Shown: positions 6,975-42,251 of the stretch, in pieces | Numbering within the stretch: the first letter of the stretch is position 1 | Layout of the letters: each line of letters starts with the position of its first letter | Assembly (NCBI GenBank): GCA_002269645.1 | Contig: NIVC01000696.1 | Coordinates: forward strand, 372,001 to 436,000 | Length of the DNA: 64,000 nt | Reading direction: 5' to 3' | Origin: Macrostomum lignano | Lineage: Eukaryota | Position numbers and translations under genes: made by a program | The notes under the pieces: model-generated | What the model saw: the letters and a program-made list of their open reading frames with translations, nothing else | Databases searched by the model: none | Told to the model about the DNA's origin: nothing

Positions 6975-7203
6975 CGCGACACCTTCCAGATAAGCACAAG
7001 CGCTGCAACCTGACTGTCCTATAAAACTTTGAAGTTGCTTCTGATGCAGTGAATTGCTTCTAAGTCTATTCTAAAATATAAATCAGCATTCTCCCCTGAA
7101 GATAAGGAGTGCGCTAAACTCGCAGCCCGTTATTTCAATTGCATGCTTTTGCAGTTAACTTTCAAAACTAAATCGCCTTTTACATCTATCTGTCTATTTA
7201 CAA

Positions 7204-7667
<464 letters not shown>

Positions 7668-8258
7668 ATCTATCGATCGATTAGGCTTAGAGCAAATACT
7701 TGTGTACTCATCCTATTACTTTATTTCTTAGAACCTTTAAGAAGACGAGCAGATAGAGTGGACGCGGAGTACAGTGGCTCAGAAGCCAGTTTTTTACCAT
7801 ATTTTCGAATTTCAGCAGGAATAAACGATGAGTTTAAAAGTAGATGAAGGTCAAACTCAGTGCTGGTGCAGGGGTGCTCACTGGCTGCTCAAGTACGAGC
7901 TAGAAGCAGACAGAGTGACGAGTGCGCAACGCAGTTAACTACGTAATCGTAGTTTGTTGACATTTTTGATGGTTTTGCTGTTTTCCTGTCTGCGGCTCCG
8001 AAATTCATACTCAGCTCTAGCATGGTTGAGTTGTGCATGCAAAACCGTGAATAAATAGAATAGTGTTATTTTTTGGTGAGATCGTGGCTGGGCAGGCGCT
8101 TCTCTCAGCAGAGTGGAGCAGTGGTTTCAGTTCATAGACGACTCTGAGGTGTTTCCAATATCAGGTATAATTGAATAAGCGTGAGTAAAATTCCAAACTC
8201 TAAAAATATTTATACTCGTCCAATTATCTCGTCAAACGCACTACTGGAAATTACTGGC

Positions 8259-9528
8259 GCTGTAGCTGGGCCCTCGCTTACAGAGCCCTCAGGCTCGTCA
8301 CAGGGTGACTGACCGGAGCTGTATCTGGGCCCTCGCTTACAGAGCCCTCGGGCTCGTCACAGGGTGACTGACCGGAGCTGTAGCTGGGCCCTCGCTTGCA
8401 GAGCCCTCGGGCTCGTCACAGGGTGACTGACCGGAGCTGTAGCTGGGCCCTCGCTTACAGAGCCCTCGGGCTCGTCACAGGGTGACTGACCGGAGCTGTA
8501 GCTGGGCCCTCGCTTACAGAGCCCTCGGGCTCGTCACAGGGTGACTGACCGGAGCTGTAGCTGGGCCCTCGCTTACAGAGCCCTCGGGCTCGTCACAGGG
8601 TGACTGACCGGAGCTGTAGCTGGGCCCTCGCTTACAGAGCCCTCGGGCTCGTCACAGGGTGACTGACCGGAGCTGTAGCTGGGCCCTCGCTTACAGAGCC
8701 CTCGGGCTCGTCACAGGGTGACTGACCGGAGCTGTAGCTGGGCCCTCGCTTGCAGAGCCCTCGGGCTCGTCACAGGGTGACTTACCGGAGCTGTAGCTGG
8801 GCCCTCGCTTACAGAGCCCTCGGGCTCGTCACAGGGTGACTGACCGGAGCTGTAGCTGGGCCCTCGCTTACAGAGCCCTCGGGCTCGTCACAGGGTGACT
8901 GACCGGAGCTGTAGCTGGGCCCTCGCTTACAGAGCCCTCGGGCTCGTCACAGGGTGACTGACCGGAGCTGTAGCTGGGCCCTCGCTTACAGAGCCCTCGG
9001 GCTCGTCACAGGGTGACTGACCGGAGCTGTAGCTGGGCCCTCGCTTACAGAGCCCTCGGGCTCGTCACAGGGTGACTGACCGGAGCTGTAGCTGGGCCCT
9101 CGCTTACAGAGCCCTCGGGCTCGTCACAGGGTGACTGACCGGAGCTGTAGCTGGGCCCTCGCTTGCAGAGCCCTCGGGCTCGTCACAGGGTGACTGACCG
9201 GAGCTGTAGCTGGGCCCTCGCTTACAGAGCCCTCGGGCTCGTCACAGGGTGACTGACCGGAGCTGTAGCTGGGCCCTCGCTTACAGAGCCCTCGGGCTCG
9301 TCACAGGGTGACTGACCGGAGCTGTAGCTGGGCCCTCGCTTACAGAGCCCTCGGGCTCGTCACAGGGTGACTGACCGGAGCTGTAGCTGGGCCCTCGCTT
9401 ACAGAGCCCTCGGGCTCGTCACAGGGTGACTTACCGGAGCTGTAGCTGGGCCCTCGCTTGCAGAGCCCTCGGGCTCGTCACAGGGTGACTTACCGGAGCT
9501 GTAGCTGGGCCCTCGCTTGCAGAGGCCT
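8259..9528. repeat. 59-bp tandem repeat, ~21.5 highly homogeneous copies
   Basis: Unit gctgtagctgggccctcgcttacagagccctcgggctcgtcacagggtgactgaccgga starts at 8259, 8318 and so on. Confidence 0.98.
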
Positions 9529-9873
9529 CAGTCCTGGTGCAGGAAGACTTTCGGTAGCTGCAGCTGCATGGACAGAGCCCTCAGTCCCCGGAACTCCCAA
9601 GCGTGAAAGACTGCACAAAGCAGCTCTGAGATGGGACCGCATTAATAAATGGTTCGCATTCGCACGCAACCTGAGTGCCTCTCTAGGAATTTTTGCTTGC
9701 GAAAATCAAATCATGATTTATTGATGCAACAGCATGAGAACAGTTTTATTTCTCACCCGCTACTTTGGCAGTCGCAGCTGGAAATGATTGCCGCTTCTCG
9801 CGTGCAGGCGGAAATGATTTATTAATGTATAATATAATTTGCCCCCCCCCCCCTGATAACAAGTAAAGCAGGT

Positions 9874-12137: not shown

Positions 12138-13291
12138 TCAGAGCGCACTGACAGAGCCAGAGTGGCTGTTTCCCTGCCTCCTGGAGAGCCCATTGGAGTT
12201 GACGCCGCCCACTCGCGCTAGCGGCGACCCGGCCTCCGATGAGACTTCGTCGGCAAACGCGGCCACAACTCCGGCCGGGGGGCGGAAGGCGACGCAGGCC
12301 TCCTTCTCCCAGGGGTCGAGCAGGTTCGCCCGCTCCGCTGCTGACGAGGAGACCACAACGGCCGGGGCAGACGCGGAGGCGGCATCGTCAACTACGTCAC
12401 CGTCATCAGCGTCTGCCGCCTCCGCGCCGACACCACCGCGGGTGCTTAGGTAGAAGAACTCCAACACCTCAACCACGAAGGCAGCAGTGAGGCCGATGCA
12501 CAAAGAGCAGAGACCGCCGATCCGACTGAGCAAGATATTGACATCTAACGTCAACTTCTCTTTTTTCATCGTCATGTCCCAATTTCGGCGCCTAATTTTG
12601 ATGTAAGTGTAAGCGTTCTGCTGCGACAGGTACTTGGTGTACTCGCTGGACGCGATGTCGGATATGTTTCTCTTCACTCTATAGAAGAATTCGGCATCGT
12701 TCACCTGTGATTGCCGGTACAGATTTCCCCATTTGTAGTGCTCCGCTAGAGCGGCCAGCTTGCTAGACGATGGCACCCACTTAGCAATTGACAAAGCGGT
12801 CTCATATGTTGAGTAGGTGCACCTCGGCAGACAGCTGATTGAAAGGTTTCGCTTCAGCAGCTCCATATCCTCCAGGTAGTTTCCGGCGCATTGTAAGCGG
12901 CTATTGACTTGTCTCAGATAGTCCAGCCTAGTGTTGCCGTCGCCACCGCCAGTAACGTCGGTGCAGTACGGAACTTTGTTGTCAGGCATCCGCAGCACTG
13001 GCCATAAAGTTGACTGACAGCCGCAATTGTCTATAAAGTGCTTTTGAAGTTTGGCATTCACGCACTGGTGATAGTTTCCGGTGTACTTGCGCTCCAGGTG
13101 GCGCACATGTGGCTGGTTGTCCCGGCAGGCCCGCTTCGGCGTGGCCAATTTGCTCCAGCTGGTGGTGCCGTAGCTGATTTCGTTCATTCGGCCTGGCTCA
13201 ACGTTGAAGCCGCTCTGGGCGAAGTCGGGGATTGTGTTTCTCTCGTGAATCGTCACTTTGACGCCTTCACCGCGTGTTAGCACATCGTATA
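12138..13291 (-). pseudogene. 3' half of an intronless DEG/ENaC (ASIC/FaNaC-like) channel gene interrupted by the LTR element
   Basis: GVKVTIHE...P....GFNVEPG motif, Cys-rich ectodomain (CGCQ, CLPRC), and TM2 LLSRIGGLCSLCIGLTAAFVVEVLEFF. Joins in frame to 23996..24674 when the element and one TSD copy are removed. Confidence 0.9.
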
Positions 13292-13295
13292 GGAA

Positions 13296-14371
13296 TGATG
13301 TGTTCCTTATTACCAGTCCTCAACTGTAATCAAGGAACAATCACTTCTAGCTCTGTAGCTAGGCAACCCAGTAATCAAATGAAGGTATTCAATTACCTTT
13401 GAGTCCTTAAATGAGAGCTCTCGTAATAATCCTCGTCCGTAGTATCGCGATCAGTAACTTTCCTGTCCTTCAGGAAGTTTAGGCACCTGGTAACAGTTGA
13501 TCTGGTCCGTTATCTCCTTTGTCCTCTTGACTTCTTGCCGGCCGGTATCTGTAGTTCGGACCAATCGGAAGCTTCCAAATTAACAATGGGGATCCCTGCG
13601 CCAAACTGCGGTTTAATATAAGCCTACTCCTTCTAGTAGTGCCTCTATGCACTCTAGGTATGGCTCCGGAAACCACTGATAGTCTTCTAAGATCTATCAG
13701 GGGCAGTCCTTCTGGAGACTGCAACCAGTGGAGTCTAAACAGACTCAAGAGTCTCAGCAGACTCAAATAAACTCAAGTCTCAATAGACTTGAGCGAGACG
13801 TCTCAACCAACGGGCGCAAATGAGTAAGGCTTACCGCAAGAACTCGTCCACGACGCGAGTTTCTTCAGGAAGGCTTCACTAGAGCTTCCTCTTCGGAGCT
13901 TCTCTCTCTTGGAGATTTTCTGGCTCCGGGTCCGTTCCGGACCACTTGTATTTATAGGCGTTCAGACCTCTCTCGAGGTCGTACATCACTGTCTTCGCAA
14001 ATGTCAAAGGGTCACGATTCGGTGGCTGTCAAGCATGACAGGGTAGAAAGTTGCGCAACTAGTCTATTGTAAAAGCGCATGATTGGTTACCGTAGCTGGT
14101 AGACTTTGATTGGTTCATCCGGGTGCAACCCGAGTGCAAACAAAATGATGACTTGAAGGTGGGGTTTGAATTGACAGTTGTTGGTCGCACGTGATTGGGT
14201 GATTTCTAAAATTAGCATGCTCAAGGTCTCTCTCTTTCTATTGGTTAGTCAGAATATACTTATAATTCAAAGCATACCTTTATTCATGCTCTTCAACTTA
14301 CTACTGAATAAAATGTGTGAGTAGTACGTTAACACTTTTATGTCTTCTTACGGGAGGTAGAACACTCTACA
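13296..14371 (-). repeat. 3' LTR (1076 bp)
   Basis: Matches 22920-23995 at offset 9624. By eye, one mismatch (A14274 vs G23898). Confidence 0.97.
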
Positions 14372-14385: not shown

Positions 14386-14589
14386 TACAAAAAAACTCGT
14401 CCGAGTTTTAAAGAGAGGATTGAAACGCATAAAAAGTTCAAGCATGTCTTTATAATAATCATTTGTCATAAGTGTTACAGGTATTTAGTAATGGGTAGTT
14501 AAGAGCGTTGGTTATAAAAGTTATTTAAAGGTAAGTATACGCATGCAAATAAAATGTTTTTGGTTACAGTATTGACATGTGCGCCAAGA

Positions 14590-14802
14590 CTAACAATAGG
14601 CGCACTGCCGCAAACTTCTTCTACCTATCGGGCAATTCTGCCAGAGCTGAATATAATGTGAGTCGCTTGAACATTGTCCGCATATGCGATGTCTGTTTTC
14701 ACAAATAATTGGTGGCTTGACAGCCAAGTCATCAGTTAAACATATTGGGCATTCGTAGAGTTGCTGTAGTTGGGGCGCCTGTTTGGACAGTGCGTTGCCC
14801 AT
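14590..14802 (-). CDS. Element-internal 70-aa ORF: predicted N-myristoylated RING-finger (C3HC4-like) protein
   Basis: MGNALS start (Gly2, Ser6); CPIC-x(11)-CENRHRICGQC-x(12)-CPIGR, with the last ligand Cys replaced by Gly; strong Kozak context acaATGg. Lies between pol and the 3' LTR on the element's sense strand. Confidence 0.7.
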   Translation of the reverse strand: MGNALSKQAPQLQQLYECPICLTDDLAVKPPIICENRHRICGQCSSDSHYIQLWQNCPIGRRSLRQCAYC

Positions 14803-14913
14803 TGTCGTCGTCGCTTGAAGTTTGAAGTCGCTCAGATTAGTCGCCTCTTACGACAAGCTTGCGAAGCTGTAGAGCTATTCTGACCCGGTCTCTACACGGG
14901 TTGTTTTCGCAAC

Positions 14914-17900
14914 TTAACGAGGTCGCAGATTGTAGCCATGTTGCTGGTTCTCGGTTGATGTTTGTGTCTCCTCGTGTTTTGTTGCGATGTGGCGGTTCGC
15001 CGAACGCGTGCGATCAGCGTTGTCTAGTGACGGTAAAAACGTTGTCGTGTCAGTGTTGATCTTCTTTAGTCGATGAATGTGCACGTAGAATTGGTGCTGA
15101 TGAGGATCTTGCACATTGGCCAGGCGTGCCGTTGTCGGTGACGTTAGTTGGACCACTCGATATGGTCCTTTGTACTTCTGTGCGTGTTTGTGCGTCTGTT
15201 GCGGCGGATAGTGCAGGTAGACGATGTCGCCGGCTGTCAGAGTTGTCGATCTCGTGTCGGTGCCGGTGGTTAGAGCCACCTGATTGTCGATGTTGTGCTT
15301 GGCTACTTTCCATGCGAGGTGTAGTTGCGTGACGAACTTTTGAATGGACGTCGGGACTTCCACATATTGCGATGGTAGTAGTTGCTGTGCCAATAGGTTT
15401 GGCGGCTGGAAGTCTCGCCCAAACATTAGAAAGAATGGCGTATTGTCCGTTGATCGATGAATAGCGCTGTTGTAGGCCATTGTTACTGCTTGCAGATAGA
15501 TGATCCAGTCGTCCGGTTGTTGATGCGCGAAATGTGTAATCATCTCGTGTAGGTTGCGGTGAAACCTTTCAACCATGTTCGCCTTCGGATTGTAGGTCGA
15601 TGTGTAGATCTGCGTGATGTTGAGGATCTTCACCACTTGCTGAAAGAGTTGAGACGTAAACTGCGATCCATTGTCCGATGTAGGTTCTTTGGCGTACCGT
15701 ACTTGCAGATGATGTCGTTGAAGAAACCCATTGCCACTGTCTGAGCTGTGATGTCCGGTATTGGTATGGCAATAGCAAACTTTGAGAAAATGTCCAAGGC
15801 TGTTAGGATGTAGGTGTAGGCTATGCCATGGAGACAGCTCGGTGGCAGCGGTCCGGTGATGTCGATGCTGAGACAGTCCATAGTTGTTGACTTTGGTATC
15901 GATTGTAGCTGTGGTTTTTGTCGTCGTCCTGTCTTTGATGCTGCGCATGAGTGGCAGTTGTTGCAATACTGCTTGATGTCGCCATGCATGCTTGGCCAAA
16001 AGTAGTATTGCTCCACTCTTGCAATGGTTTTGGCTGCCGACAGGTGTCCAGCGAGTGGGTTGTCGTGCAGCTCGTTGAGAATTGCCTGCCTAAACGAATA
16101 TGGCATGTAGATTTTAGGTTTGTTGTCACTCATCCAGTAGAGTCGTGACTTGTTGATTGTTAAATGTTGTCGCTGCTTGCGCAGGAATTTTCGTTCCACG
16201 GGGCTGAGCTTGATGTCCTTGTCGTTGTTTTTAACTGCTATGTAGAAGTTGTCGTGTTCCGTCTCATCCACCAATTCCTTGATGTTAGGGATTGGATGAA
16301 TGGCGTTGACTTCGTAGGCTCTTGACAGGGCGTCCGCGGCCTTGTTAGTAATTCCTGGTTTGTAGACGAGCTTGTAGTTGTAGTCCTGGATCTTGAGTGT
16401 CATCCTGATGAGTCGGTTGTTTGTTTGTCCTTTTGTAGTTACGACGTAGGTCAGCGGTGCATGATCTGTGCGTACTATCGTCTGTAATGGAGATCCATAG
16501 ATGTAGTAGTGAAACTGTCGTAGGGCGAACAGAACTCCTAGTAGTTCTCGTTCCGTAGCTGACCATTTTGTCTCATTCGGTTTAAGTGCTCGACTGACGT
16601 AGGCTATAGGTCGTTCCTTTTTGTCTTCAGTTTCCTGTAGTAGGACTGCTCCGAGTCCCGTTCCTGAGGCGTCTGTCTCGATGATGAAGGGTTTGTCGAA
16701 GTCCGGATGCTGTAGCAGTGCGTCTGATGTCAGCTGTCGTTTGATTTCGTCAAAACTTTCTTGTTGCTTTTGTGTCCAATTCTCCTGCTTCCATTTGTCG
16801 AACTTGAGCAGGTCGTACAGCGGCTTTGCTGTCTTCGCGAAGTTGGGTAAGAACTTTCGGAAGTATTGCGCAAGTCCAAGAAATGATTGGACCTTCGTTA
16901 TGCTAGTTGGCGTAGGAAACTTTTTCACTTTATCCACGTTGTCTGGGTCCGGTGAAATTCCTTTGGCTGTCACCTGATGTCCCAGGTAACGCACGTTGTC
17001 TCGGAAGAATTTGCATTTAGTTGGTTGTAGCTTAAGTCCTTGTCGTTGATAAGCGCGAGGGCCTTCTCCGTCGCTTCATAGAGTCGTTCGAAGTCTTCTC
17101 CGTAGGCCAAGATGTCGTCAACATAGTGCAACAGGTTCGTGCATCCTGCAAGCATGTATGCTGTTAGTCGGCTCATCGTTGCTGGGCTGTTGCTGAGTCC
17201 CATCGGCGATCGATTGTACTCGTATACTTGTCCATTGTAGGTTTTGAAAGCCGTGTACTGTCGTGACTCTTTCTCGATTTCAATTTGCCAAAATCCATGA
17301 CGTAGGTCGAACACTGTGAACAATTTTGCCGTGTTGAGCTTTGCTAGTAGTTCGGAGATCTTCGGTAGGCTTTGCTGATCCGTCGGTATGTACTTGTTCA
17401 GTAGTCTGAAGTCACATACGAGTCGTCTTTCGTTAGTCTCCTTCTTTTGTACCAGAGACGGTGAGGAGTAGCTGAAATGGCTTTGCTGATGATGCCGTGT
17501 TTAGCATTTTGTCGATAATTCATCGAAGTGTGTTGCAGATGCTTGGCGATCGGGTACGGTTTGCACTGAATTGGTTCCGTGTGCGGCAGAAGTTTGATTT
17601 CCTGTTTGATGTCCTTGGCTCGTCCGATGTCGTAGTCATGGTGGCAGAAAGCGTCGTTGTACTTCCACAACAGCTGTCGAACTTTCCTCTTTTGCTGTTC
17701 CGTAATCGGGCTGTCATCCAAATTGATCTTCTTTTGAAATTCTTCCTCTGTTAGTCGTGGAGTCGCTTGCTCAATCAGCATAACCGATGCTTGGGTGTTG
17801 AGATGACCGATGCACATTCCTTGTCGTAGATGAACCGTTTCTGTGTTCGGGTTGAATATTTGTACTGGCAGCTGTTTATCTTTTGCAACCAGTACTAGTG

Positions 17901-18636
17901 CCGTAGGCATCATAATTTGGTGTTTAGCCGTGACTCTTCTGTTTGGGTCGAATATCATTGCTTCCTCCGTTGCGTTAGTTGCCTTTGCCTTTATCCAGCA
18001 GGCGCTCTCCGGTTGGATGATGACATCTTGTTGCAATGTTACTTTTGGTAGTACTCGGATCTGGTTGATCAATGGTTGTTCTACCGAGTCGATCTTGAAC
18101 GTTTGCTTATTGAAGTCGAAGGTCAATGGTAGTCGAAGCTGCTTGAACGTGTCGATGCCAACAATAACGTCCTGGTTTGGGAGTCTGTCGATGACGTACG
18201 TTGGAACTGTCAAGTGTTTATTAGCGATTCTTAAATCAATGTCGGCTTTTCCCAGAATGTTTAGCGAATGTCCTCCTGCTCCTGCAACTGCGATTGTTGC
18301 TGGCCGTAGAGCAAGTCGTAGCTTGTTGCACAGTTGTTTTGATATAACTGTGATGGAGCTGCCGGAATCGAGTAGCGCTCGACATGGTAGATTGTTGATT
18401 ACCACTTGAGCCATGGCTTTGCCAATTTCGGCGTGTAGAGTACATACGTAGTTCTCTGGCCATTTTGGGTCTTGCTGTTCTGCTTGATAGTTGGGTGGTT
18501 GTATTCTTGGTGCCGTTGGTGTTGTCGGAATCGATGGATATAGCCGCGTTGCTAGTGTCGGTTGCCCTTGAACCTCACGATGTGCAGTTTCTGTTAGTTC
18601 TAAACTGTTGTCGCCTTCCGTTGTCGTTCTTTGCAT
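14914..18636 (-). CDS. pol: Pol polyprotein (aspartic protease, RT, RNase H, integrase), with frame breaks in this sequence
   Basis: ALLDSGSSITVI (protease); RRLVCDFRLLN, DLRHGFWQI and YVDD (RT); ETDAS, ERELL and RTDH (RNase H); HHCC, IDITGPL, SDNGSQF and VERF (integrase); C-terminal YNLRPR. Spread over ORF-track segments 17398..18945, 16970..17323, 15630..16994 and 14914..15999. Confidence 0.95.
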
Positions 18637-21600
18637 TATGGCATTAACTGTCTTCTTAGCTTTGGACAAGTTTGACTGAAGCACCGTACGATCGACGAAA
18701 TGATGAAGATTGCCGTGACAATCCACACAATGCAAGCACCGTAGAAGATGAATCCTTGATAGAGACTGCCTCTTCCATTGAGCAGCTCCCAGAAGCTGTT
18801 TGTCCAAAATGATTTGATGGCGCTGTCCATTGAAACAAGGACGGGAAATCTTCCTGTCCCGGTTCCTTTGTCCTTTCTTGTGAACAGCTGGTGAATCATC
18901 TTGCGTTGGGTGATGAACGCTTGCAAGAAGTCGTTGATCGTCCATCCTGGTGTTATCTCGTCAAGTTGGATATCGGCGAATGGCGTATACTTCGTTCTGT
19001 TGAATCGGATTTTCAAATCCTCCATGTCGTAGTTTTCGTCGACGATTACTTCCGGTTCTGTGATGTTTGCTGTCGTTCCAGTTGTTTTGATGACGTGTAG
19101 TGCATTGTCCAGTTGATAATAGTTTGCTGCCGTGGTGCAAGGTCTCGGTATTGCGGTGCCAACGATGATGTTGTGTACCGTGTCCAAGAATCCCTGAATT
19201 CGTTTTCCTTCGTAGAACGCTTCAATCCTTGGCTTGTCGTAGCAGGTTGTTGACGTGTTCGACGGCAAGATGTTAAAGTGCTGTATCGGCGTGCACTTGT
19301 ATATCAACAGATGCTCGTATATTGGAACTGCCAAAACGTTCGTCATTCCGGTGATTTTACGAAAAGTCATCGTAGGGTTGACATAGTAGTTTTGTCTGGC
19401 ATAATTTAAGTTGATTGCGTGCATTTTGCAAGTTAGCTGGACCAGTGTTCGATGCAAGTGGTTTAACTGGTTGTGTAGATTGTGATCCAAAGCCGTTATC
19501 TTTGCTGACAGTAGTCGGTTTGACACCAGTTTGGGACGTTCGATGTCTCGTCGTCGTCTGTTCTGTTGTTCCTGCTGTTGATACGTTCCGTTGATGATCG
19601 CCAGAAAGGTTTGTTTGTCGTCTTCTTTTACGTAGACTGGTATCTCTTGTTCCGAGATGAATAGTGTCTTGTCTGTATCCTTGCATTTCAGTTTTTGCTC
19701 GACTGGTTTCTTTTGAAATGTCAGTGCCAAGTCTCCTGACTTTGCCAAAAACGTGTTTGACAGTAGACCTCCTTCAACTGTGTGATACTTTTGAAGCTTG
19801 CAGTCAATTTCCGGCTCAACTTCCCACGCGAAGAAGTATTGTCGTGACTTAGATGGTTCTTCATATCGTGAGTCGCCTCTGCGTATTATTTGCCATCGAT
19901 AGTCTTGATGATATGTTGGACTCAACGGTAAGCTGTATAGTTCCTCATTCCGCAGTATCGGCGTTGGACACCATCCTTTGCTGTATCGGCAGTCACTTAA
20001 TTGCAGTTGTAGCGACTCCATTTTTTCAAAAGGATTGTGGTAGAATGGAATATTCCTGATTAGGTAACTGTTTCGTGTCATGTAGTTAGTCCATGCTTCC
20101 GAAAAGTGTACATATCGTCCGTTTGCTGAGTTCTTCGTTCGGTAAAGTTGTGCCTCCCCCACTTTCTCATCCGGTTCTAGCTGACCATCCTTTGAGAACA
20201 GTGTTTGGTTCCATTGTAGACATTCAGCGTGCGACACATGTAGTTCGTGTTGCCAAAATCGAATTCTGTTCCATTGTCCTCGCCAAACTTTTTCCACTAG
20301 GTGCTTGTCTCTAAAGCACACTATTCCGAGTTGTCGATGCTTCTTGATGTTAGCTTTGTAGAGATCAATTGTGATCTTCTTTGGCTTCGTCTGATTTGTC
20401 TTGAAGTAGCTGCATTTGATGTCGGTTGGTATCTTGTAGATCATCGGTTGGATATGCGCATCCGTTGGACATATCATTGGTTTCTCCATTGCTGTTGCTT
20501 TGGTGACTACTGCCGTCAGTAGTATTATGATGATCCAGAATATCCAGAGTCGCCATTTTCTGAACGTTGCCGTTGTCTTTGCTGGCATTGGCTGCGGCTG
20601 CCATTCGTTATCTTCTACGTCCGCATCGTATTCTTCCTCTTGTTCCATTGGCGTTTCCGAGCGCAAGGCATCCGATTCGTTCCGCTGCTTGTCGTCTTCA
20701 TCGTTTTCTTCCTTGCTTTCTTCCGATGTTGTAGTTGTGTCACTCCATTGTCTGCGGTACCTCACTTCGGCCTTGTAGTCGACCGTTTGGATGTAGGCTT
20801 CACCATTTCGTTTATAGCGGATCTCGTAGCATTGATCGCTGTCGGAGCTTAGATTTCTTTCTTCCATTCCTTTGTGCCTTCCGTCTTCATGTTCTTTGTC
20901 GGCGGCTTGGTTGTCATCAGCGTCATTCTGCATCTCATAATCGTGATCGCTGCTTTCTTCTTGCTGTTCTTCTTCCATCTCCGCATTTCCGTCGTTGCTT
21001 CTTTCGTTGTCATCCTTCGTTGCCGGTTCCTTGTCGTTGCCTTTGTTTGTTTCTTCTTTTCTTTCATTGATGTCGCTTGGCAATGTTTTTTCTGTGCTCA
21101 CTTCTGCCTTTTCTTCTTCGCTGTCAATGTTAGTTTCTTTCATTTCGACCATGCTGATGTTTTTTGTCTTTTCGCTGCTCTCCGCATCGAGCCAGTCGAT
21201 TTCATTGATAGTGAAGTCCATTTCTAAGTCGTCTATCGTGAAGACTTGCTGCTCTTGCTGTTCGCTTTCCGGTGTGTACGTGATGGCGTTTGCATATCGT
21301 TGCATCGCTTGCGTTGGTTGCTTGGGCATGTATCTGGTGTTTCGCGGTCTGTAGCCATTGTTTCCGAAGCGTTTCGTGTTTTGCTGCTGCCAATTTTGAT
21401 GTTGTTGCCATGGTTTTTGCGGCTTCCTTCTGTTGAATGGCTGTCGCTGCATGTCATTTCTTGTTGACCGATGAGGACAATGTATTTGGTAGTGTCCTTC
21501 TCGTCCGCAGTAATAGCATCTGGCTTGGGCTCGTTCATTTCGTCTTTTTTGTTCGGCGATAACGGCTGTTTGATGTTGCATCAATTTGTTTAGTTGCTGT

Positions 21601-22223
21601 GTCAGTTTCTGCACTTCTGTGTTGCCGGTTGTCATTAGTGGAGCGCTTGCTTCCCACTGCATTCCGCACCGTAAAAGGTCTTCCTCGGTTTCAATGTTTT
21701 CGCGTAGAAGTCTATCTCGGAGTGACGGCTGTGCATTGTTTATTACGTGCAGAATCAGATTTTGTTCGCGATCCATCAATCGCTGTCGCTCTCTAGCGGC
21801 TAATTCTGCCGCACCCAGAGGTGGTTGGTCTGCAGCTGGCAGTGTTGGCTGATGCAGTGCCTTAATTATCTGACGGATGTCGTCCACAAAGGTCAGGAAG
21901 GATTCGGTTGGCTGCATCCTTCTGTTATGCAACTTGTGCAGTAGCACTGATCTGTTTGTGCCACAGCGGTTGAAATGTGCGCGCAGTTGAATGATTAATG
22001 CTGGGTAGTTTTGCTGTGTTGCCGCGTCTAGTTTACCATAAATCTCTCGTGCAGTGCCTTGGAGGAGTGGTGGCAACAGTTGCGCTTTTTCTGGATTTTG
22101 TAGGTTGTATTCCCTACATACCAGGTCAAAATGATCAACAAAGGTGTTAAAGTCTTTTTCCATAGAAAAGGTGCCAACTGTCTCTTTGATATCTCTGTGC
22201 ACCGTTGGATTGCGCCGCGCCAT
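18636..22223 (-). CDS. 1195-aa Gag-Env fusion ORF: Gypsy Gag, CCHC, acidic linker, internal signal anchor, class III (gB-like) fusion glycoprotein, TM
   Basis: Gag N-terminus FVDHFDLVC...KAQLLPPLLQGTAREIY; CYYCGREGHYQIHC at 21477-21518; hydrophobic RKWRLWIFWIIIILLTAVVTKA at ~20495-20560; RRRR furin site at 19548-19559; gB-like motifs; six N-glycosylation sequons; C-terminal TM at ~18690-18765. No stop codon across the ORF. Confidence 0.9.
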   Translation of the reverse strand: MARRNPTVHRDIKETVGTFSMEKDFNTFVDHFDLVCREYNLQNPEKAQLLPPLLQGTAREIYGKLDAATQQNYPALIIQLRAHFNRCGTNRSVLLHKLHNRRMQPTESFLTFVDDIRQIIKALHQPTLPAADQPPLGAAELAARERQRLMDREQNLILHVINNAQPSLRDRLLRENIETEEDLLRCGMQWEASAPLMTTGNTEVQKLTQQLNKLMQHQTAVIAEQKRRNERAQARCYYCGREGHYQIHCPHRSTRNDMQRQPFNRRKPQKPWQQHQNWQQQNTKRFGNNGYRPRNTRYMPKQPTQAMQRYANAITYTPESEQQEQQVFTIDDLEMDFTINEIDWLDAESSEKTKNISMVEMKETNIDSEEEKAEVSTEKTLPSDINERKEETNKGNDKEPATKDDNERSNDGNAEMEEEQQEESSDHDYEMQNDADDNQAADKEHEDGRHKGMEERNLSSDSDQCYEIRYKRNGEAYIQTVDYKAEVRYRRQWSDTTTTSEESKEENDEDDKQRNESDALRSETPMEQEEEYDADVEDNEWQPQPMPAKTTATFRKWRLWIFWIIIILLTAVVTKATAMEKPMICPTDAHIQPMIYKIPTDIKCSYFKTNQTKPKKITIDLYKANIKKHRQLGIVCFRDKHLVEKVWRGQWNRIRFWQHELHVSHAECLQWNQTLFSKDGQLEPDEKVGEAQLYRTKNSANGRYVHFSEAWTNYMTRNSYLIRNIPFYHNPFEKMESLQLQLSDCRYSKGWCPTPILRNEELYSLPLSPTYHQDYRWQIIRRGDSRYEEPSKSRQYFFAWEVEPEIDCKLQKYHTVEGGLLSNTFLAKSGDLALTFQKKPVEQKLKCKDTDKTLFISEQEIPVYVKEDDKQTFLAIINGTYQQQEQQNRRRRDIERPKLVSNRLLSAKITALDHNLHNQLNHLHRTLVQLTCKMHAINLNYARQNYYVNPTMTFRKITGMTNVLAVPIYEHLLIYKCTPIQHFNILPSNTSTTCYDKPRIEAFYEGKRIQGFLDTVHNIIVGTAIPRPCTTAANYYQLDNALHVIKTTGTTANITEPEVIVDENYDMEDLKIRFNRTKYTPFADIQLDEITPGWTINDFLQAFITQRKMIHQLFTRKDKGTGTGRFPVLVSMDSAIKSFWTNSFWELLNGRGSLYQGFIFYGACIVWIVTAIFIISSIVRCFSQTCPKLRRQLMP

Positions 22224-22899: not shown

Positions 22900-22917
22900 G
22901 AGAGGGCGAGATCACCA
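22900..22917 (-). other. Primer-binding site TGGTGATCTCGCCCTCTC, 2 nt inside the 5' LTR
   Basis: Begins TGG (complement of tRNA CCA) after an AT spacer following the LTR end ...CACATCA. Confidence 0.75.
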
Positions 22918-22919
22918 AT

Positions 22920-23995
22920 TGATGTGTTCCTTATTACCAGTCCTCAACTGTAATCAAGGAACAATCACTTCTAGCTCTGTAGCTAGGCAACCCAGTAATC
23001 AAATGAAGGTATTCAATTACCTTTGAGTCCTTAAATGAGAGCTCTCGTAATAATCCTCGTCCGTAGTATCGCGATCAGTAACTTTCCTGTCCTTCAGGAA
23101 GTTTAGGCACCTGGTAACAGTTGATCTGGTCCGTTATCTCCTTTGTCCTCTTGACTTCTTGCCGGCCGGTATCTGTAGTTCGGACCAATCGGAAGCTTCC
23201 AAATTAACAATGGGGATCCCTGCGCCAAACTGCGGTTTAATATAAGCCTACTCCTTCTAGTAGTGCCTCTATGCACTCTAGGTATGGCTCCGGAAACCAC
23301 TGATAGTCTTCTAAGATCTATCAGGGGCAGTCCTTCTGGAGACTGCAACCAGTGGAGTCTAAACAGACTCAAGAGTCTCAGCAGACTCAAATAAACTCAA
23401 GTCTCAATAGACTTGAGCGAGACGTCTCAACCAACGGGCGCAAATGAGTAAGGCTTACCGCAAGAACTCGTCCACGACGCGAGTTTCTTCAGGAAGGCTT
23501 CACTAGAGCTTCCTCTTCGGAGCTTCTCTCTCTTGGAGATTTTCTGGCTCCGGGTCCGTTCCGGACCACTTGTATTTATAGGCGTTCAGACCTCTCTCGA
23601 GGTCGTACATCACTGTCTTCGCAAATGTCAAAGGGTCACGATTCGGTGGCTGTCAAGCATGACAGGGTAGAAAGTTGCGCAACTAGTCTATTGTAAAAGC
23701 GCATGATTGGTTACCGTAGCTGGTAGACTTTGATTGGTTCATCCGGGTGCAACCCGAGTGCAAACAAAATGATGACTTGAAGGTGGGGTTTGAATTGACA
23801 GTTGTTGGTCGCACGTGATTGGGTGATTTCTAAAATTAGCATGCTCAAGGTCTCTCTCTTTCTATTGGTTAGTCAGAATATACTTATAATTCAAAGCGTA
23901 CCTTTATTCATGCTCTTCAACTTACTACTGAATAAAATGTGTGAGTAGTACGTTAACACTTTTATGTCTTCTTACGGGAGGTAGAACACTCTACA
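22920..23995 (-). repeat. 5' LTR (1076 bp)
   Basis: Minus strand TGTAGAG...CACATCA; near-identical to 13296-14371. Confidence 0.97.
23573..23870 (-). promoter_or_regulatory. LTR U3 promoter: TATAAATA box with four upstream CCAAT boxes
   Basis: Plus-strand tatttata at 23573-23580 (13949-13956 in the 3' LTR), and four attgg motifs at ~23705, ~23732, ~23817 and ~23864. Confidence 0.6.
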
Positions 23996-24674
23996 GGAAG
24001 CTGCGACTCATCTGGGGCAGCTTTTCCATCGGCACAAGCGACATGATAACGATAATAGATTCGAACTCCCGACTGAATGTGACATTGTCTGCGTCCACTG
24101 TAAAACAGTTGAAGAACTCACCGTAGGAGAAAAGGCGTACCGAGACCTGGATGCCTGGGATCTCGCAGTTGTCGGCAATGTACTGCTGGCCGCCCATAAC
24201 CACCACACAGAAGAAGAGGCTGCTGCGATTGTGACCGATCATTATTGTCTCGTTAAACGGCAACTGCTGATAGTAGGTTTCGATATTGTCGTATGCGTAC
24301 ATCAGTTTCAAGTTTTCCAGATTATTAGCTAGTGCCAGCCCAGTGACGTCCTTGAGCATCTTTTGGAATCGCAGGGGACTCATGACAGCGCCTGAGTCCC
24401 ACAAGTTCTGTGCCTCGTAGCTGAACGGGCTGTGCGCGCACAGAGTGAACGAAGGAAACTCGGGCTTAACGTCGAACGCAGTGGACGTGTGCCAGGCAGT
24501 GTCGTAGTTGAGAAAATCCTTCACTAGGAAGGCGGACACGATCACCAGCACCAGCGTCATCACAACAACAAACGATAGCCAGAGTATCTTTATAAACGGC
24601 GACCGGGCCTTTAGGATTTTCTGCACGCCCCTAATTGAGGAGCCTTCGCAGAAAAGTCTCCAACGGCTGGCCAT
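23996..24674 (-). pseudogene. 5' half of the interrupted DEG/ENaC gene; now stops at an in-frame TAG just inside the LTR
   Basis: MASRWRLFCEGSSIRG (pre-TM1 F...S.HG-like motif) and TM1 ILWLSFVVVMTLVLVIVSAFLV. Reconstructed junction reads MSRSFL-YDVLTRGEGVKV; the restored ORF is 1833 nt (610 aa). Confidence 0.9.
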
Positions 24675-29581: not shown

Positions 29582-32500
29582 CTACTGCTTCTGCGGTCTC
29601 TGCTTCTCGATTGACGCCGCCTGGTCGGCGCCCGCTCCTGAATTGGTCAATTTGGTGCTGCAAAACTTTTCTACGTCATTGAGATTGCTCAGAAAATAAA
29701 TTAAACTCAAGTGAAGATTAGCTAACTTCGCTTTTTTCAAGTCGCAGGTGAATCTTCTGCCGCTTTCTATGCCTAAATCACAGATAAAGGGAGAAGGGAC
29801 TAAAGAAAGAACTTGATGAAGTGGGTGAAAATTTTCTGATTGAAACCTGACGGACCACTTACCGTCAGCTCCAGCTTCCGCCGTTTGCTGTTGCCTTTTG
29901 TTGCGGCTGGCGTCGTGTCCCCCGCCGCCATTGTCGCAGCTGCCGCCGCGGCCGCTGTCATCGTTGGAGCCGTCTGTGGACCGGAGGCTGGCAAAGTCTG
30001 GCGGAGGCGGGCTTTCCCGCTGCTGCTTGTAGAAGAGGCTGCGGCTCTGCTGGGTTCAGTGTGACAAGACGGGCATTGCGTGGGACCGACTGCATAGGGT
30101 TTATGGTTTCAATGACTGCCGTTAAACAAATAGGCTGGAATATTGGATAAATTTAACTCGCAGGCGCTCTGTTCTACTCATAGTATGCATTCGCAATATC
30201 GAATTAAAAATCAAAAAATTACTCATACTTCTGCAACAACGGCTAGATAAGAATTGCTTTTTGGTCAACTTAAAAAACTTTCCCTAAACTTCGCCATGAC
30301 ACTTTATTTAATCCGCTGCTATTTTGTTCCAGCAAATTTAATATGAAAGACATGACAGTCATGACGTTGGCCTAATGAATAATATACAAGTGAATTCAAG
30401 CAGGTAACTTTTCTCCTGACCTGACGGTGCGCAGCCTGTCTGCCTGTCATCGGGACGCTGGCCTCATCGTCCTCAAATTCTTGGCGGGCTGTCGGGCCTC
30501 GGCTGAACAGAGGACGCCGGGTTTGGCTCCTGCCCGATGCAGCGCCTGCGGCTGAGGGAATGCGAATTGAAGTGCCGGTTTGACATCCCCACTGTTTTTT
30601 GTTGATAAAAATAATATAAATATAATAACTGACTACACCTGCCCTAATGGCCAGATGTGCAACCGACAGCTCAGCCGCCGCTATTGCGTGGCGTCACCTG
30701 AAGGCTGCGTACGGCTGTTCAGTCCAAGGACTGGGGGGGGGGTCGCCACACACACCCTCAATTACCCCAGCTAATGCTGGCACCCATTTTACAGCTGGGT
30801 GAACTGAAGCAATGCAGAGTTAAGTGTCTTGCTCAAGGACACAAATTGTTCCGAGTGGGTCGAGAATCGAACCTCCGACATTTCAGTCGCGAGTTATACG
30901 GGTTTACTTCAGACACTACTAAAAGTAGCATTTAATTATTCATGCACAATACTTTATTTGAGCAATGCAGTCAGAATCAATAGGCGAACAAAGATCTGGA
31001 CAAGCCGGCGTTAGGAAGAATGCTGTATTTTGACATGGCCATTACGCTTTGTGCTGTGGAGTTGTAATTTGGCATGGCCGTTATGCTCTGTGCTGTGGAG
31101 TTGTAATTTGGCATGGCCGTTATGCTCTGTGCTGTGGAGTTGTAATTTGGCATGGCCGTTATGCTCTGTGCTGTGGAGTTGTAATTTGGCATGGCCGTTA
31201 TGCTCTGTGCTGTGGAGTTGTAATTTGGCATGGCCGTTATGCTCTGTGCTGTGGAGTTGTAATTTGGCATGGCCGTTATGCTCTGTGCTGTGGAGTTGTA
31301 ATTTCGCATGGCCGTTATGCTCTGTGCTGTGGAGTTGTAATTTGGCATGGCCGTTATGCTCTGTGCTGTGGAGTTGTAATTTGGCATGGCCGTTATGCTC
31401 TGTGCTGTGGAGTTGTAATTTCGCATGGCCGTTATGCTCTGTGCTGTGGAGTTGTAATTTGGCATGGCCGTTATGCTCTGTGCTGTGGAGTTGTAATTTC
31501 GCATGGCCGTTATGCTCTGTGCTGTGGAGTTGTAATTTCGCATGGCCGTTTTGCTCTGTCCTATAGCTGTACTAAAAGGCTAAAGATAAGAACGATCACT
31601 GCCAATTTTCCAGCTTATTTGCCTACCTATCCGCGTAGAAGCCGAGAATTTAAGCTTCATCTTTTCACTAATTAGAACAGATACGCCAATTTCAGTCCCA
31701 ATGCCCTGCTCCATGCTAATCTCTTCATTAACCTGGAAGGGCATTAGCGTTAGTGAAGCACCCGGATAAGCGCCATGGGTGCATTCCGCTGCTTAATCCC
31801 GCGCCCATGTCTGTTTGCCGCTAATTCTGATTGCTAGCTGCAGGAGACGAGCAGGTCGAAAGCAGCTCTCCCGGTGCCCAGATAATCCAGTCATACGAAA
31901 CAGAGTTTAATCAGTAAGTCGCCCCTAGCACCGGAAGGCATCCTCGATATGAGCGCTTTCATGGAGACTGAATATCATTTTGAAAAAGTCATTCCCAGCC
32001 CTGTAATTCCTGCGATTACTGGCTCTAAAACCTGATGGACGGATTGCTGGGCAAACTGGAGTCTGAAGTACACTATATTTTTCAGATTCCCGCAGAATGT
32101 TTAAAATTTACAGATCTCTGAAGCTATTTAGTTACATTTAAGATGCATATTTAAGATACATATAAATCCACTTTCCTCTTAATTCAAATACAGTTGTGGC
32201 AAATCTGGACAGCTGGAATCTGAACTCACCAATGCAGCGGCGGCGGCACGAGATGACCAGCAAGCCCGTGACGAGAACCAGCAGGAAGGCTGCAGTCGCG
32301 AACACGAGTCCCGCGATCACAATAAAGCCATCGGTGCCCGCTGTTCCTGGGCCACTGACGTCCCCGTCAGAGTGAAGCACTCGCTCGGTTCGAACGAATT
32401 CTACATCGAGCGACTGAACATCTTCGAGCGGAGGCTGACCGAGATCTCGCACCATCAGAGTCAGCCGAATTGGCTGGGCGGCGAGTTCTGGCGCCAACGG

Positions 32501-37307: not shown

Positions 37308-38481
37308 GAGTTTCACTGCAGCGTAGGGGAGCGGGAGCACCTCGATTTTGGCTTCCTCAATCCAGGTATTCCCCTGCTAATTAGGTGTTGAGGCTGAACA
37401 AGGTACCGGATGGAGGGAGAAAAACTGTATTTCTGTTCAATACAGTTAATAGTCAGCCTGAGTTTCATTCATTGCATCGAGTACTCAGACAGTTTGGAGT
37501 AAGTCAATATCAGATTTGCGATTTTAGTGGTAAAGTTAGGTTAAAGAAATAAAGAAAAACAATAAAGAAATAAAGAGCGCATGGAAATACGAGTACAACG
37601 ACACGCAGCGAATTAAGAACAGACTATTCTCAGTTAATTAATTTCATTTTTAAATTCATTAATGGCAGCAACAGCGAACCAAATAAGAATCTAATTTTCA
37701 TCTATTAGTTGGCGCGGGTCTGCAGCCCCAGCAAGAAGTCTATTAGCGCAGCTTCACAGAGAAAGACGGAGAGATGAAGAGCTGCAAGTAGAGGAGAATA
37801 TGAGTGGGGGCGGATGGGTTAGTTGGGGGCAAGCTGGGCTACGGGATGAGGGAAGCCCACTTCCTCAGCCGCAGAGGATCTGAGATGAGGGAGGCTGGCT
37901 GAATCAAACAATGCCGGCCTGAATTGAAAGTCTGCGAGTAGAAGAAAGGAGAGAGAGGAGACTCAGAGGGATTCCTGCAAAGAGAGAAAAGTTGGGCAAA
38001 AAGTACGATCGTCAGCGTCGAAGCCCGTAGAGGGCTGGCTGCAAGTCTGCGGGCTGGGTTCAACAGACCTGGCTGAGCAGCTCGAACCCAGTCCGGATTT
38101 ATGCATCCAGCTCAGCGTCGAATATCTGAAGTGGCTGGATTGTGGGCAGAATTTCTTCCTGCTTCCGTGCTCAGCAGATTCTATTCAAGCGCCAGCATCC
38201 TTGTGGGACCTCCATCGTGGAGAAGTGTTTTCTTTGGTGGGTGCTTGAGAACAAGAGCTCTCTTTGTGGACTCTCCCCGGTCTTCTTCACTAGCAGCATT
38301 TACAACTGCTTTAAAAAAGACTGATAATACATACAAAAATAGGAGAGCTAGGCAAACAGTTTCTGTAAGGTAAATGGGAGTAGCAGAGACTGTGGCTTGC
38401 GCTGATTGGCCAGTCAAGCGTTTGCCAGGTTTCCTGTGGGTAGTCGATTCGTATGGAATAGAAGTCAATTCGTAAGAATAT

Positions 38482-39012
38482 GTCAGTTCAACCCTAATTA
38501 GTTAGGGCCCGGTCAGTTCAACCCTAATTAGTTAGGGCCCGGTCAGTTCAACCCTAATTAGTTAGGGCCCGGTCAGTTCAACCCTAATTAGTTAGGGCCC
38601 GGTCAGTTCAACCCTAATTAGTTAGGGCCCGGTCAGTTCAACCCTAATTAGTTAGGGCCCGGTCAGTTCAACCCTAATTAGTTAGGGCCCGGTCAGTTCA
38701 ACCCTAATTAGTTAGGGCCCGGTCAGTTCAACCCTAATTAGTTAGGGCCCGGTCAGTTCAACCCTAATTAGTTAGGGCCCGGTCAGTTCAACCCTAATTA
38801 GTTAGGGCCCGGTCAGTTCAACCCTAATTAACTAAGGCCCCATTCAGTTCAACCCTAATTAACTAAGGCCCCGTTCAGTTCAACACAAATCCAGGCCCGG
38901 TCAGTTCAACACAAATCCAGGCCCAGTCAGTTCAACACAAATCCAGGCCTGGTCAGTTCAACACAAATCCAGGCCCAGTCAGTTCAACACAAATCAAGGG
39001 CCCGGTCAGTTC
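38482..39012. repeat. 30-bp tandem repeat (11 exact copies) decaying into ~25-bp variants
   Basis: Unit gtcagttcaaccctaattagttagggcccg runs 38482-38811, followed by two variants and then ~5 gtcagttcaacacaaatccaggccc units. Confidence 0.97.
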
Positions 39013-39918
39013 ATCTTGTGGCTTTGCTTACCTGAAAATGACGCAAGCCTAGTAACCCCAGAAACATATCCGCTGCCTCAAGTAATCAGGTAGTTGTCAG
39101 GTAAAGCCTTCTAAATAGCGTTTTTAGCGCTTATGAGAATCTATAGATAATAGCGCATACTACTCATTTAAGAATACAAATACTACCGATTTTCTCATTA
39201 CATGGATACAAACTTGCACTGGACGATAGTAGTTCATCCACTGTCCAGAGTAGCATCTACTACGGCTCTGGACTTTCCCTTTAGCCAATAGAAGTGTTTA
39301 CCGAGCTCTGGCCAATTTTGCATGTGCGAACAGACATGCAGGCTCATGTCTACATCTCCCATTTTAATCTCTCACGCCACATCCTTGCGGTTCGGGCTTT
39401 GGGGTTTTGCATCGCCCCGCAGATCAAACAGGCTGGTGGCGCAGACTGGATAACAGGCTCAGTGCAGGATGATGGAGTGCTCAGAAATTTATTCCACTTT
39501 GCCTTATCTGCAGCTGGAACCGCGGATGCTCACTTCAACCTCTTATAAATCTTTTGAAACTTTATTTTGAGCATTTTTGGCAGAGTAGGTAGGTTCTCTG
39601 AAAGTTTAAGCAACTAAAACCGAATCGTGCTCACCAGTGCTCAGCAGCAGCGTCTGTGTAGATTAAATTAAAAATTCAGAAAATCAGGTATTATTCAATT
39701 TCAAATGCATCATGGACTGTGTTGGGATTTTCAAAGAAAAGCCTGCTACTACCAAACTTTAATAGGTGACAGATTTACACTGAAAATCGACTGTTGTTGG
39801 CGACGTGATGAGCTAGTTAGTTTTATCCCCAGTCTGAAGCCTGAAGCAGCCAATCAGCGAAGGCGATGGGTAAGTGAGGGGGTTGAGGCCGCTGCACTCT
39901 CCAGTTAATAAAAAGCTC

Positions 39919-41409
39919 AGACACTTCATATCTCAGACACTTCATATCTCCGACACTTCATATCTCAGACACTTTATATCACCCCCCGACAATTCATATC
40001 TCAAACACTTCATATCTCAGACACTTAATATCTCAAACACTTCATATCTCCGACACTTCATATCTCTGACACTTCATATCTCCGACACTTCATATCTCAG
40101 ACACTTCATATCTCCGACACTTCATATATCAGACTCTTCATATCTCCGACACTTCATATCTCAGACACTTCATATCTCCGACACTTCATATCTCCGACAC
40201 TTCATATCTCAGACACTTCATATCTCCGACACTTCGTATCTCCCCCGACACTTCATATCTCAGACACTTCATATCTCCGACACTTCATATCTCCAACACT
40301 TCATATCTCCCCGACACTTCATATCTCAGACACTTCATATCTCCGACACTTCATATCTCAAACACTTCATATCTCCGACACTTCATATCTCAGACACTTC
40401 ATATCTCCGACACTTCATATCACCGACACTTCATATCTCAGACACTTCATATCTCCGACACTTTATATCTCGCCCCGAAAATTCATATCTCAAACACTTC
40501 ATATATCCGATACTTCATATCTCCGACACTTCATATCTCCGACACTTCATATCTCAGACACTTCATATCTCAAACACTTCATATCTCAGACACTTCATAT
40601 CTCCGAAACTTCACATCTCAGACACTTCATATCTCAAACACTTCATATCTCCGACACTTCATATCACCGACACTTCATATCTCCGACACTTCATATCTCA
40701 GACACTTCATATCTCCGACACTTCATATCTCCGACACTTCATATCTCAAACACTTCATATCTCCGACACTTCATATCTCAGACACTTCATATCTCCCCCG
40801 ACACTTCATATCTCCGACACTTCATATCTCCGACACTTCATATCTCCGACACTTCATATCTCCGACACTTCATATCTCAGACACTTCATATCTCCCCCGA
40901 CACTTCATATCTCCGACACTTCATATCTCCGACACTTCATATCTCAGACACTTCATATCTCCCCGACACTTCATATCTCCGACACTTCGTATCTCAGACA
41001 CTTCATATCTCCGACACTTCGTATCTCCCCCGACACTTCATATCTCAGACACTTCATATCTCCGACACTTCATATCTCCGACACTTCATATCTCCCCGAC
41101 ACTTCATATCTCCGACACTTCGTATCTCCCCCGACACTTCATATCTCAGACACTTCATATCTCAAACACTTCATATCTCCGACACTTCATATCTCCCCGA
41201 CACTTCATATCTCCGACACTTCATATCTCTCCCGACGCTCCATATCTCAGACACTTCATATCTCCGACGCTCCATATCTCAGACACTTCATATCTCCCCC
41301 GACACTTCATATCTCAGACACTTCATATCTCCGACACTTCATATCTCAGACACTTCATATCTCAAACACTTCATATCTCCGACACCTCATATCTCCGACA
41401 CTTCATATC
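39919..41409. repeat. 16-bp minisatellite acacttcatatctc(c/a)g, ~90 degenerate copies
   Basis: Direct reading; explains the spurious 513-aa ORF 39874..41415. Confidence 0.97.
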
Positions 41410-42251
41410 GGATAAACTGAGATAGCTAGGCCACTTTGTTTATCAGAACGGGTTGCAACCAGCGTATGCTTTCTATGCCTGGATTAGCTTCGACTGTTAT
41501 GGCACAAAAATACCTCTACGATGCATGATAAAAATACAGTTTACCGTTTTGCTGTCTCGCGAAATTGAGAGGCATCAACCTGTTTTCTTTAACCTACCTG
41601 CGACTGCTGCGCAGCAATGGCACAGAAATGAGGCAGTGGCTGCGCTAGAGACCTTGTGTTCTGTGCTCACGCATCTCGAGAAATCCCCCCTGCTGAGAGG
41701 CTAGCGGGCTTGAAGGCCTTGGTTGGAGCTTTTGGGTTTTCCTAATCGCCGAGAGTCTTAGAATTTTTTGCATAAACTGCGCCTGCGTCTGCCCCAAGCA
41801 TTCTTCACCCGGTTCAGTGAGCTTTGAGAGTTCGAAGTGCCTGTCGTGGTGTTATCTAATGAGCATCTCCAATGCTTAACAGACAATGCTAGAGAGCGTT
41901 TGAGATTTGCCCACTCAAAATGAAGCGGGTCTTGCAGCTTCTATGCATTCTTCGCACTAATCTACTGTATTTTAATAGCAGCCGTCTCTTATTTGCAACC
42001 TTTTTATCTGGTTTTCAAAAGAGAAAGGATGCAAGGAACACCAAGCACGGATAGAATATTTCCATCAATTATTGTAACACAAACAGACAAAAAATGTTGA
42101 ACATGTGCTTCAGCGTTACCTTTGCAAAAGTGCCAATGGTTGAATCCTTAAGGAGAGATTCTCTTTTTCTCTATGGAGATTGTGACCCACCAAGAAAGAT
42201 TTGGCAAGAGATAATAAATCACTGTTATTAGGCAGTAGTTCTGGTTCTCTG

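Follow-up and report, generated by a model that had tools for sequence, protein, structure and literature searches.

A truncated RING gene in a Gag-Env-Pol errantivirus of Macrostomum lignano and the double-RING cassette from which it probably derives

A young errantivirus within a host channel gene

The DNA analyzed here (hereafter the window) is a stretch of 64,000 nucleotides of contig NIVC01000696.1 from the Macrostomum lignano assembly GCA_002269645.1; all features of the element and its host gene lie on the minus strand. The 5′ LTR (22920–23995; 1076 nt, TG...CA, with a TATA near 23580) and the 3′ LTR (13296–14371, with a purine tract directly before it) are identical at 1075 of 1076 positions, and a 12-nt primer-binding site (22906–22917) is the same as that of the published Mlig_errantivirus_2. 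The first open reading frame (18636–22223) encodes Gag, with its CCHC knuckle, joined to a fusion glycoprotein of the gB/class III type, the Pfam matches for both parts being below the cut-off (zf-CCHC, E=0.12; Monjiviricetes_fusion, E=3e-5). The Pol region (14914–18640), in which protease and integrase pieces were identified, is broken by frame shifts in the window copy; one open Gag-Env-Pol frame of about 2440–2500 aa is present in 2 of 20 other copies of the subfamily. A 4-bp target-site duplication (13292–13295, partner at 23996–23999) flanks the element, and on either side lie the two parts of a host DEG/ENaC (ASC) channel gene (5′ part 23996–24674, 3′ part 12138–13295), with Pfam ASC matches on both sides: the young insertion has split a coding exon whose reading frame continues over the duplicated site.

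With its LTRs, primer-binding site, target-site duplication, protease preceding integrase in pol, and an env of the class III/gB type (on the sub-threshold match given above) between gag and pol, the window element is by its sequence a Gag-Env-Pol errantivirus of the Ty3/gypsy group, and its backbone family has already been published. A sister subfamily corresponds to a published row listed as ENV_HSV. A preliminary description of this DNA had placed a small extra ORF where env usually sits; env is in fact present, fused behind Gag.

The genome holds at least 22 copies of the window type at ≥95% identity (40 candidates out of 321 having been scored). In the 19 of 20 subfamily copies that could be measured, the two LTRs, compared over part of their length, are nearly identical, so that the subfamily is young and was recently amplified. 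It is also a mosaic: its integrase is 98% identical to that of one lineage with which it shares only 73% identity in RING-A, the gene discussed below, whereas another lineage is 90% identical in the integrase yet 82% in RING-A.

Elsewhere in the window there are several arrays of tandem repeats, whose units measure 8–59 nt (7092–7700, 8135–9673, 30907–31679, 38392–39002, 39852–41462 and 45593–46564), and two inverted-repeat pairs about 600–700 nt across that resemble miniature DNA transposons (49064–49679 and 61623–62297).

The 70-codon ORF downstream of pol

The small ORF occupies positions 14802–14590 (−); it starts 111 nt past the stop codon of the integrase, and about 220 nt separate its end from the 3′ LTR. 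As first described, it begins MGNALSK in a strong Kozak context and has RING spacing of the SIAH kind, though the Pfam match to Sina_RING is weak (E=0.085, below the cut-off). The 70 codons cover an N-terminal extension, a first RING (RING1) without its eighth zinc ligand, and the first CxxC of a second RING (RING2).

The product had been read as a complete small protein. This does not hold, as homology to relatives of 222 aa passes through the stop codon to residue 90 (14533–14589, −) and then breaks off at a deletion that took the remainder of this gene, RING-A, and all of the gene that follows it elsewhere, RING-B. No RING-B matches lie beside window-type copies among the matches listed, and a truncated sister copy examined was likewise without RING-B. 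The glycine in place of the last ligand, formerly put down to a copy-specific mutation or a sequencing error, is found in 21 of 21 scorable copies (one frameshifted copy of the 22 was left out); it is therefore a trait of the subfamily, and sequencing error is ruled out. Ligand 6 is tyrosine in 15 of these 21 copies and ligand 7 in two. The start is identical in 22/22 copies, and the stop falls at codon 70 in 20/22. The truncation and the ligand loss are thus features of the whole subfamily, and the 70-aa product does not have the eight ligands of a RING-HC E3 ligase.

Among the 150 matches listed there are, by our own count, about 32 full-length, stop-free RING-A genes, about 24 from a subfamily truncated at 124–144 aa, and the 22 of the window type; the M. 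lignano assembly is described as redundant (PMC12801592, consulted in part), so that all copy counts given here are inflated.

Taken as a whole, and including the parts of the account that are inferred, the best explanation is that the ORF is very probably a degenerate remnant of RING-A, the gene that opens a cassette of two or three. An improbable alternative is that the stub is a re-purposed mini-protein, acting either as a membrane-tethered single RING that uses the terminal CxxC or as a dominant-negative form of full-length RING-A. The stop directly after the CxxC would suit such a role, as would a frame that 20 of the 22 copies keep open, with only nine codons varying in amino acid. Against it, the tyrosine at ligand 6 removes a further ligand from most copies, the substitute CxxC pair has neither the proline nor the linchpin arginine, and a second subfamily is truncated at another place, which suggests repeated loss. 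The subfamily lost its cassette yet was recently amplified, and RING-A is therefore dispensable in cis.

An accessory cassette of double-RING genes

Invertebrate errantiviruses are usually drawn with gag, pol and env only. In at least four M. lignano lineages, with about 50–98% identity in Gag-Env, a cassette of two or three paralogous genes of 198–222 aa each lies between the integrase and the 3′ LTR. RING-A in its natural form has 216–222 aa and RING-B, the second gene, 198–219 aa; a third gene, RING-C, is found in one lineage. Each full-length protein has two C3HC4 RINGs back to back and a helical domain that bears a WP motif, and the 16 ligand positions show little or no variation.

The full-length genes are, as judged from substitution ratios, under purifying selection. 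For RING-A, dN/dS is 0.13–0.30 (10 of 45 pairs, those with dS<1.5); for RING-B it is 0.17–0.31 in nine pairs and 0.71 in one close, low-dS pair, and two comparisons of RING-B with RING-C gave 0.55 and 0.59. Three close pairs of integrases gave 0.04–0.11; a stop was present in one of the integrase slices, which makes the pairs using it unreliable. Although the stub compared with full-length relatives has a dN/dS of 0.17–0.24, this mostly reflects its history before truncation, since dS to its closest full-length relative is already 0.6. Within the subfamily, nine codons vary in amino acid and four silently, numbers too few to prove neutrality.

Could the RING genes be host or Polinton genes, recently acquired as passengers? 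One cassette adjoins Polinton-like genes (contigs C1063/C1064, where capsid-, ATPase- and polymerase-like ORFs, recognized by eye, lie next to an LTR-element 3′ fragment with three RING genes), and a lone double-RING fragment of RING-A (C356 and C1588) lies outside any element, with no recognizable element copy around it. The copy on C1063 is, however, itself a 3′ fragment of an LTR element, with the end of the integrase and LTR-side DNA, which puts a Polinton origin out of consideration. Element DNA stands beside the RING genes in 19 of 20 further stretches and an intron-containing host copy in none, and purifying selection extends across old lineages; recent acquisition is accordingly very improbable.

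We also noted an internally deleted, non-autonomous form (contig C301 and about ten similar copies), in which the Gag-Env frame is fused to the tail of the integrase and RING-A and RING-B are intact. On contigs C2121, C1130, C87 and C272, copies of the family are densely nested or in tandem, with reshuffled and mixed RING cassettes; these regions are possibly piRNA-cluster-like.

Proteins encoded by the cassette

RING1 ends in CPxCR in 14/14 proteins, including outside relatives at 22–34% identity; RING2 is without the arginine. In RING E3 ligases an arginine at that position is the linchpin for the E2-ubiquitin conjugate, and its presence in RING1 and absence from RING2 make RING1 the likely catalytic RING. 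Full-length RING-A, RING-B and RING-C proteins have the eight ligands and the CPxCR with linchpin-type arginine in RING1 (14/14). An AlphaFold model of a full-length protein (pLDDT 85) contains a RING-like fold, with an rmsd of about 2 Å over 46–48 residues and a middling Z of 5.2, and a profile search of the PDB returned 22 hits, all RING proteins, led by SIAH1, TRIM5 and RING2.

Other searches returned little: fold searches with the full-length protein gave no match at E≤0.001, the helical domain had no convincing match in Pfam, the PDB or fold libraries (best Z 5.6), and the ESM Atlas gave generic RING clusters only, below 0.9. Among 1.84 billion representative sequences four matched below 1e-30, namely a gene model from M. 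lignano and three unnamed proteins; one of these outside relatives clusters with RING-A (support 99/97) on a long branch. A word-index search for homologues of the RING alignment found none among 1795 candidates, and a single-protein query recovered only itself. In these searches the combination of a double RING and a helical domain could be assigned to no family with a name.

From the motif and fold evidence, the full-length cassette proteins are probably element-encoded E3 ubiquitin ligases. The earlier suggestion of an E3 ligase directed at host defence can be kept for these genes, with their CPxCR in all 14 proteins and their purifying selection, and not for the stub, in which ligands are missing. 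That the full-length proteins are instead non-catalytic zinc-finger adaptors or decoys, binding an E2, RNA or chromatin, seems rather unlikely: the absence of the linchpin arginine from RING2, a helical domain with no clear fold match and Pfam RING scores that are mostly below the cut-off would agree with it, but the retention of CPxCR in RING1 even in distant relatives speaks for catalysis. If the proteins are ligases, RING1 would bind the E2, with RING2 and the helical domain serving as scaffold or substrate adaptor, and the enzymes may remove or retune host defence factors. The proteins would act in trans, in which case subfamilies could lose the cassette and still spread, as two large ones have done independently.

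The N-terminal glycine and the comparison with arenavirus Z

The preliminary description proposed that the ORF encodes a myristoylated RING protein that could have a role in matrix formation or budding, as arenavirus Z has. The observation on Gag that accompanied it is correct, as Gag starts MARR and has no glycine at position 2. The myristoylation signal itself is part of an 11-residue extension that only one RING-A clade possesses. Gly2 and Ser6 are kept across the lineages of that clade at dS of about 1.5, and myristoylation is therefore plausible there, where the added signal would put RING-A at membranes. The idea does not carry over to other lineages: an N-terminal glycine is absent from RING-A lineages starting MANT, MAKK or MDCP, from the RING-B and RING-C genes examined, and from the outside relatives.

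Arenavirus Z has a Gly2 obligatory for N-myristoylation, a RING domain and C-terminal PTAP/PPxY late domains. A reading of the stub as a small Z-like matrix protein could draw on MGNALSK, present in every one of the 22 subfamily copies and in closely related sister lineages, and on an element that has an envelope protein and a Gag without Gly2. It is nevertheless scarcely credible, as lineages with the same Gag-Env do without Gly2, the zinc ligands were lost while the subfamily amplified, and the natural product is a double RING of 222 aa. PTAP/PPxY late domains were found in none of ten proteins checked, the stub having none (one RING-C carries a YPxxxL-like string), and arenavirus Z was not among the Pfam matches or the 22 PDB profile hits.

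Expression of RING-B and RING-A

A CAG lies 0–2 nt before the ATG of RING-B in 16/16 spacers, which are related to one another and come from about five lineages, and in none of three RING-C spacers. In a UniRef gene model, possibly a pure prediction, two starts of RING-B are connected at the exact nucleotide with two GTAAG donors in LTRs. The second of these is a further LTR donor; the first is used in a GT..AG intron that the LTR of the window element contains (23173–23458, −), whose donor, about 120 nt after the TATA, is conserved in three lineages. The joint of this intron is found in contigs of two sequencing runs (X1 and X12) and is absent from two others (X2 and X18); the RNA status of the runs is a guess, and X1 is partly DNA-like. 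These observations suggest that RING-B is quite probably made from a spliced subgenomic mRNA, with LTR exons joined to an acceptor at its ATG.

For RING-A the preliminary description invoked the same kind of splicing, with a CTAAT branch motif and an AG acceptor near 14812. The AG is not conserved, and one lineage has no AG between the upstream RNA structure described below and the ATG; the CTAAT is the 3′ end of that structure. Contig joints at 14812 or 14866 were not seen among the joints listed (4 of 24 runs, with 42 joints not shown). Contig ends at 14881 in two runs lie exactly 30 nt before a difference between sister types, and were set aside as breaks in the assembly graph and not RNA ends. 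Readthrough of the pol stop codon into RING-A is also rejected, since the spacer varies in length and frame from lineage to lineage and in-frame stops are present. We put the chances at about even that RING-A is reached through the structured RNA, by internal ribosome entry, self-cleavage or an exonuclease block, and not through an acceptor near 14812.

A conserved pseudoknotted RNA upstream of RING-A

The structured RNA of about 70 nt (14826–14900, −) consists of a hairpin whose loop forms a pseudoknot, an A-rich AGAAUA linker, a variable helix and a near-invariant hairpin. Its 62-nt core (14900–14839) is identical at 49–62 of 62 positions in six lineages, as against 97–175 of 213 for the RING-A stretch, so that the core is more conserved than its surroundings. 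An 18-nt part of it had 103 matches in the genome and a control had one; the places compared by eye adjoin RING-A on its upstream side. Two base pairs of the pseudoknot helix have changed on both sides among 11 variants, which are related sequences and the same ones from which the structure was derived.

Outside M. lignano, the motif was found in 27 metagenome stretches, three stretches from genome collections and two of 12 viral hits. The other ten viral hits, and one of three hits of another pattern search, were without the structure and are taken as chance; a stricter pattern gave no match in metagenomes. Five of the 30 outside stretches have the motif directly 5′ of the endonuclease ORF of a non-LTR element (four with Pfam support), elements which we take to be RTE. 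Others place it within a 74-nt tandem repeat, in the 3′ UTR of a dsRNA virus with RdRP_4, and between genes of a 212-kb contig of a DNA virus. Over 23 distinct variants, the pseudoknot stem scored 6.13, where permuted partners gave 5.30, and the second helix scored 4.70, where they gave 3.82 (0/2000 permutations each), these scores being best-register searches on pattern-selected sequences, several of which pair poorly. The variable helix is weak in two flatworm lineages, and the z-scores of single-strand folding are not significant, as expected for a pseudoknot.

Scans with Rfam at E thresholds from 1 to 10 gave no relevant match and no ribozyme model, though truncated variants can evade such models, and the HDV and twister cores could not be mapped onto the RNA by eye. 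HDV-like ribozymes located 5′ in non-LTR elements are reported to process the 5′ terminus of the element and perhaps also to help in its translation (PMC8256844), and a truncated twister at RTE 5′ ends is mentioned as unpublished in the part of PMC7761336 consulted. The RNA may be a truncated twister variant, an RNA of some unrecognized class, an IRES or an exonuclease block. A bolder proposal, which we hold only tentatively and consider doubtful, is that it represents an undescribed class of self-cleaving ribozyme or translation element, common to non-LTR elements, a dsRNA virus, a large DNA virus and tandem repeats, that was co-opted here for the release or translation of a subgenomic mRNA of double-RING, anti-defence E3 ligases; if true, an invertebrate errantivirus would resemble complex retroviruses both in having accessory genes and in its way of expressing them.

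Significance and comparison with known systems

A cassette of candidate E3 ligases that is selected and duplicated suggests active counter-defence against the host, and the existence of two young, numerous subfamilies without it makes a helper-versus-cheater model testable in a tractable flatworm. The RNA element is of interest in its own right, with covarying stems in very different mobile elements and no Rfam model. Our literature search found neither the cassette nor the sequence of the RNA motif described; most subscription journals were outside its scope, and absence from print is unproven. Bdelloid LTR elements were considered as a precedent for RING ORFs and discarded, the word RING having no occurrence in PMC5408684.

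Errantiviruses with a gB-type env in the order Gag-Env-Pol have been published for flatworms (PMC13524379, in its main text and the supplements searched), and the row Platyhelminthes_Rhabditophora_Mlig_errantivirus_2 shares with the window element its gene order, its gB-type env and the 12-nt primer-binding site. The LTR of that row, about 864 nt, corresponds to the sister subfamily with a RING-A truncated at 124 aa, while the LTRs of the window subfamily are 1076 nt. RING, a cassette, splicing or the RNA element were not found in that main text or in the supplements searched. The planarian Burro, a giant gypsy element, encodes RING and ubiquitin- or apoptosis-related domains proposed to meddle with host systems; in the part of its description consulted (PMC6431247) these domains sit in a polyprotein of about 5000 aa, whereas M. 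lignano has separate double-RING genes of some 200 aa after pol.

Among proteins, RING-HC E3 ligases (SIAH, TRIM, RNF4) and the RING proteins of large DNA viruses share with the cassette the C3HC4 spacing and the CPxCR end, and provide its best, though weak, sequence and fold hits. Unlike SIAH, the cassette proteins are without SIAH zinc fingers or a substrate domain and have two RINGs head to tail. The likeness to arenavirus Z comes down to Gly2 plus a RING in one RING-A clade; full-length RING-A differs in having two RINGs and a helical domain, in lacking PTAP/PPxY and in having been repeatedly lost, and the matrix analogy should be dropped. With the self-cleaving ribozymes of non-LTR elements the upstream RNA shares the kinds of location and a pseudoknotted fold, but in M. 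lignano its place is within an LTR element, after pol and before the accessory genes.
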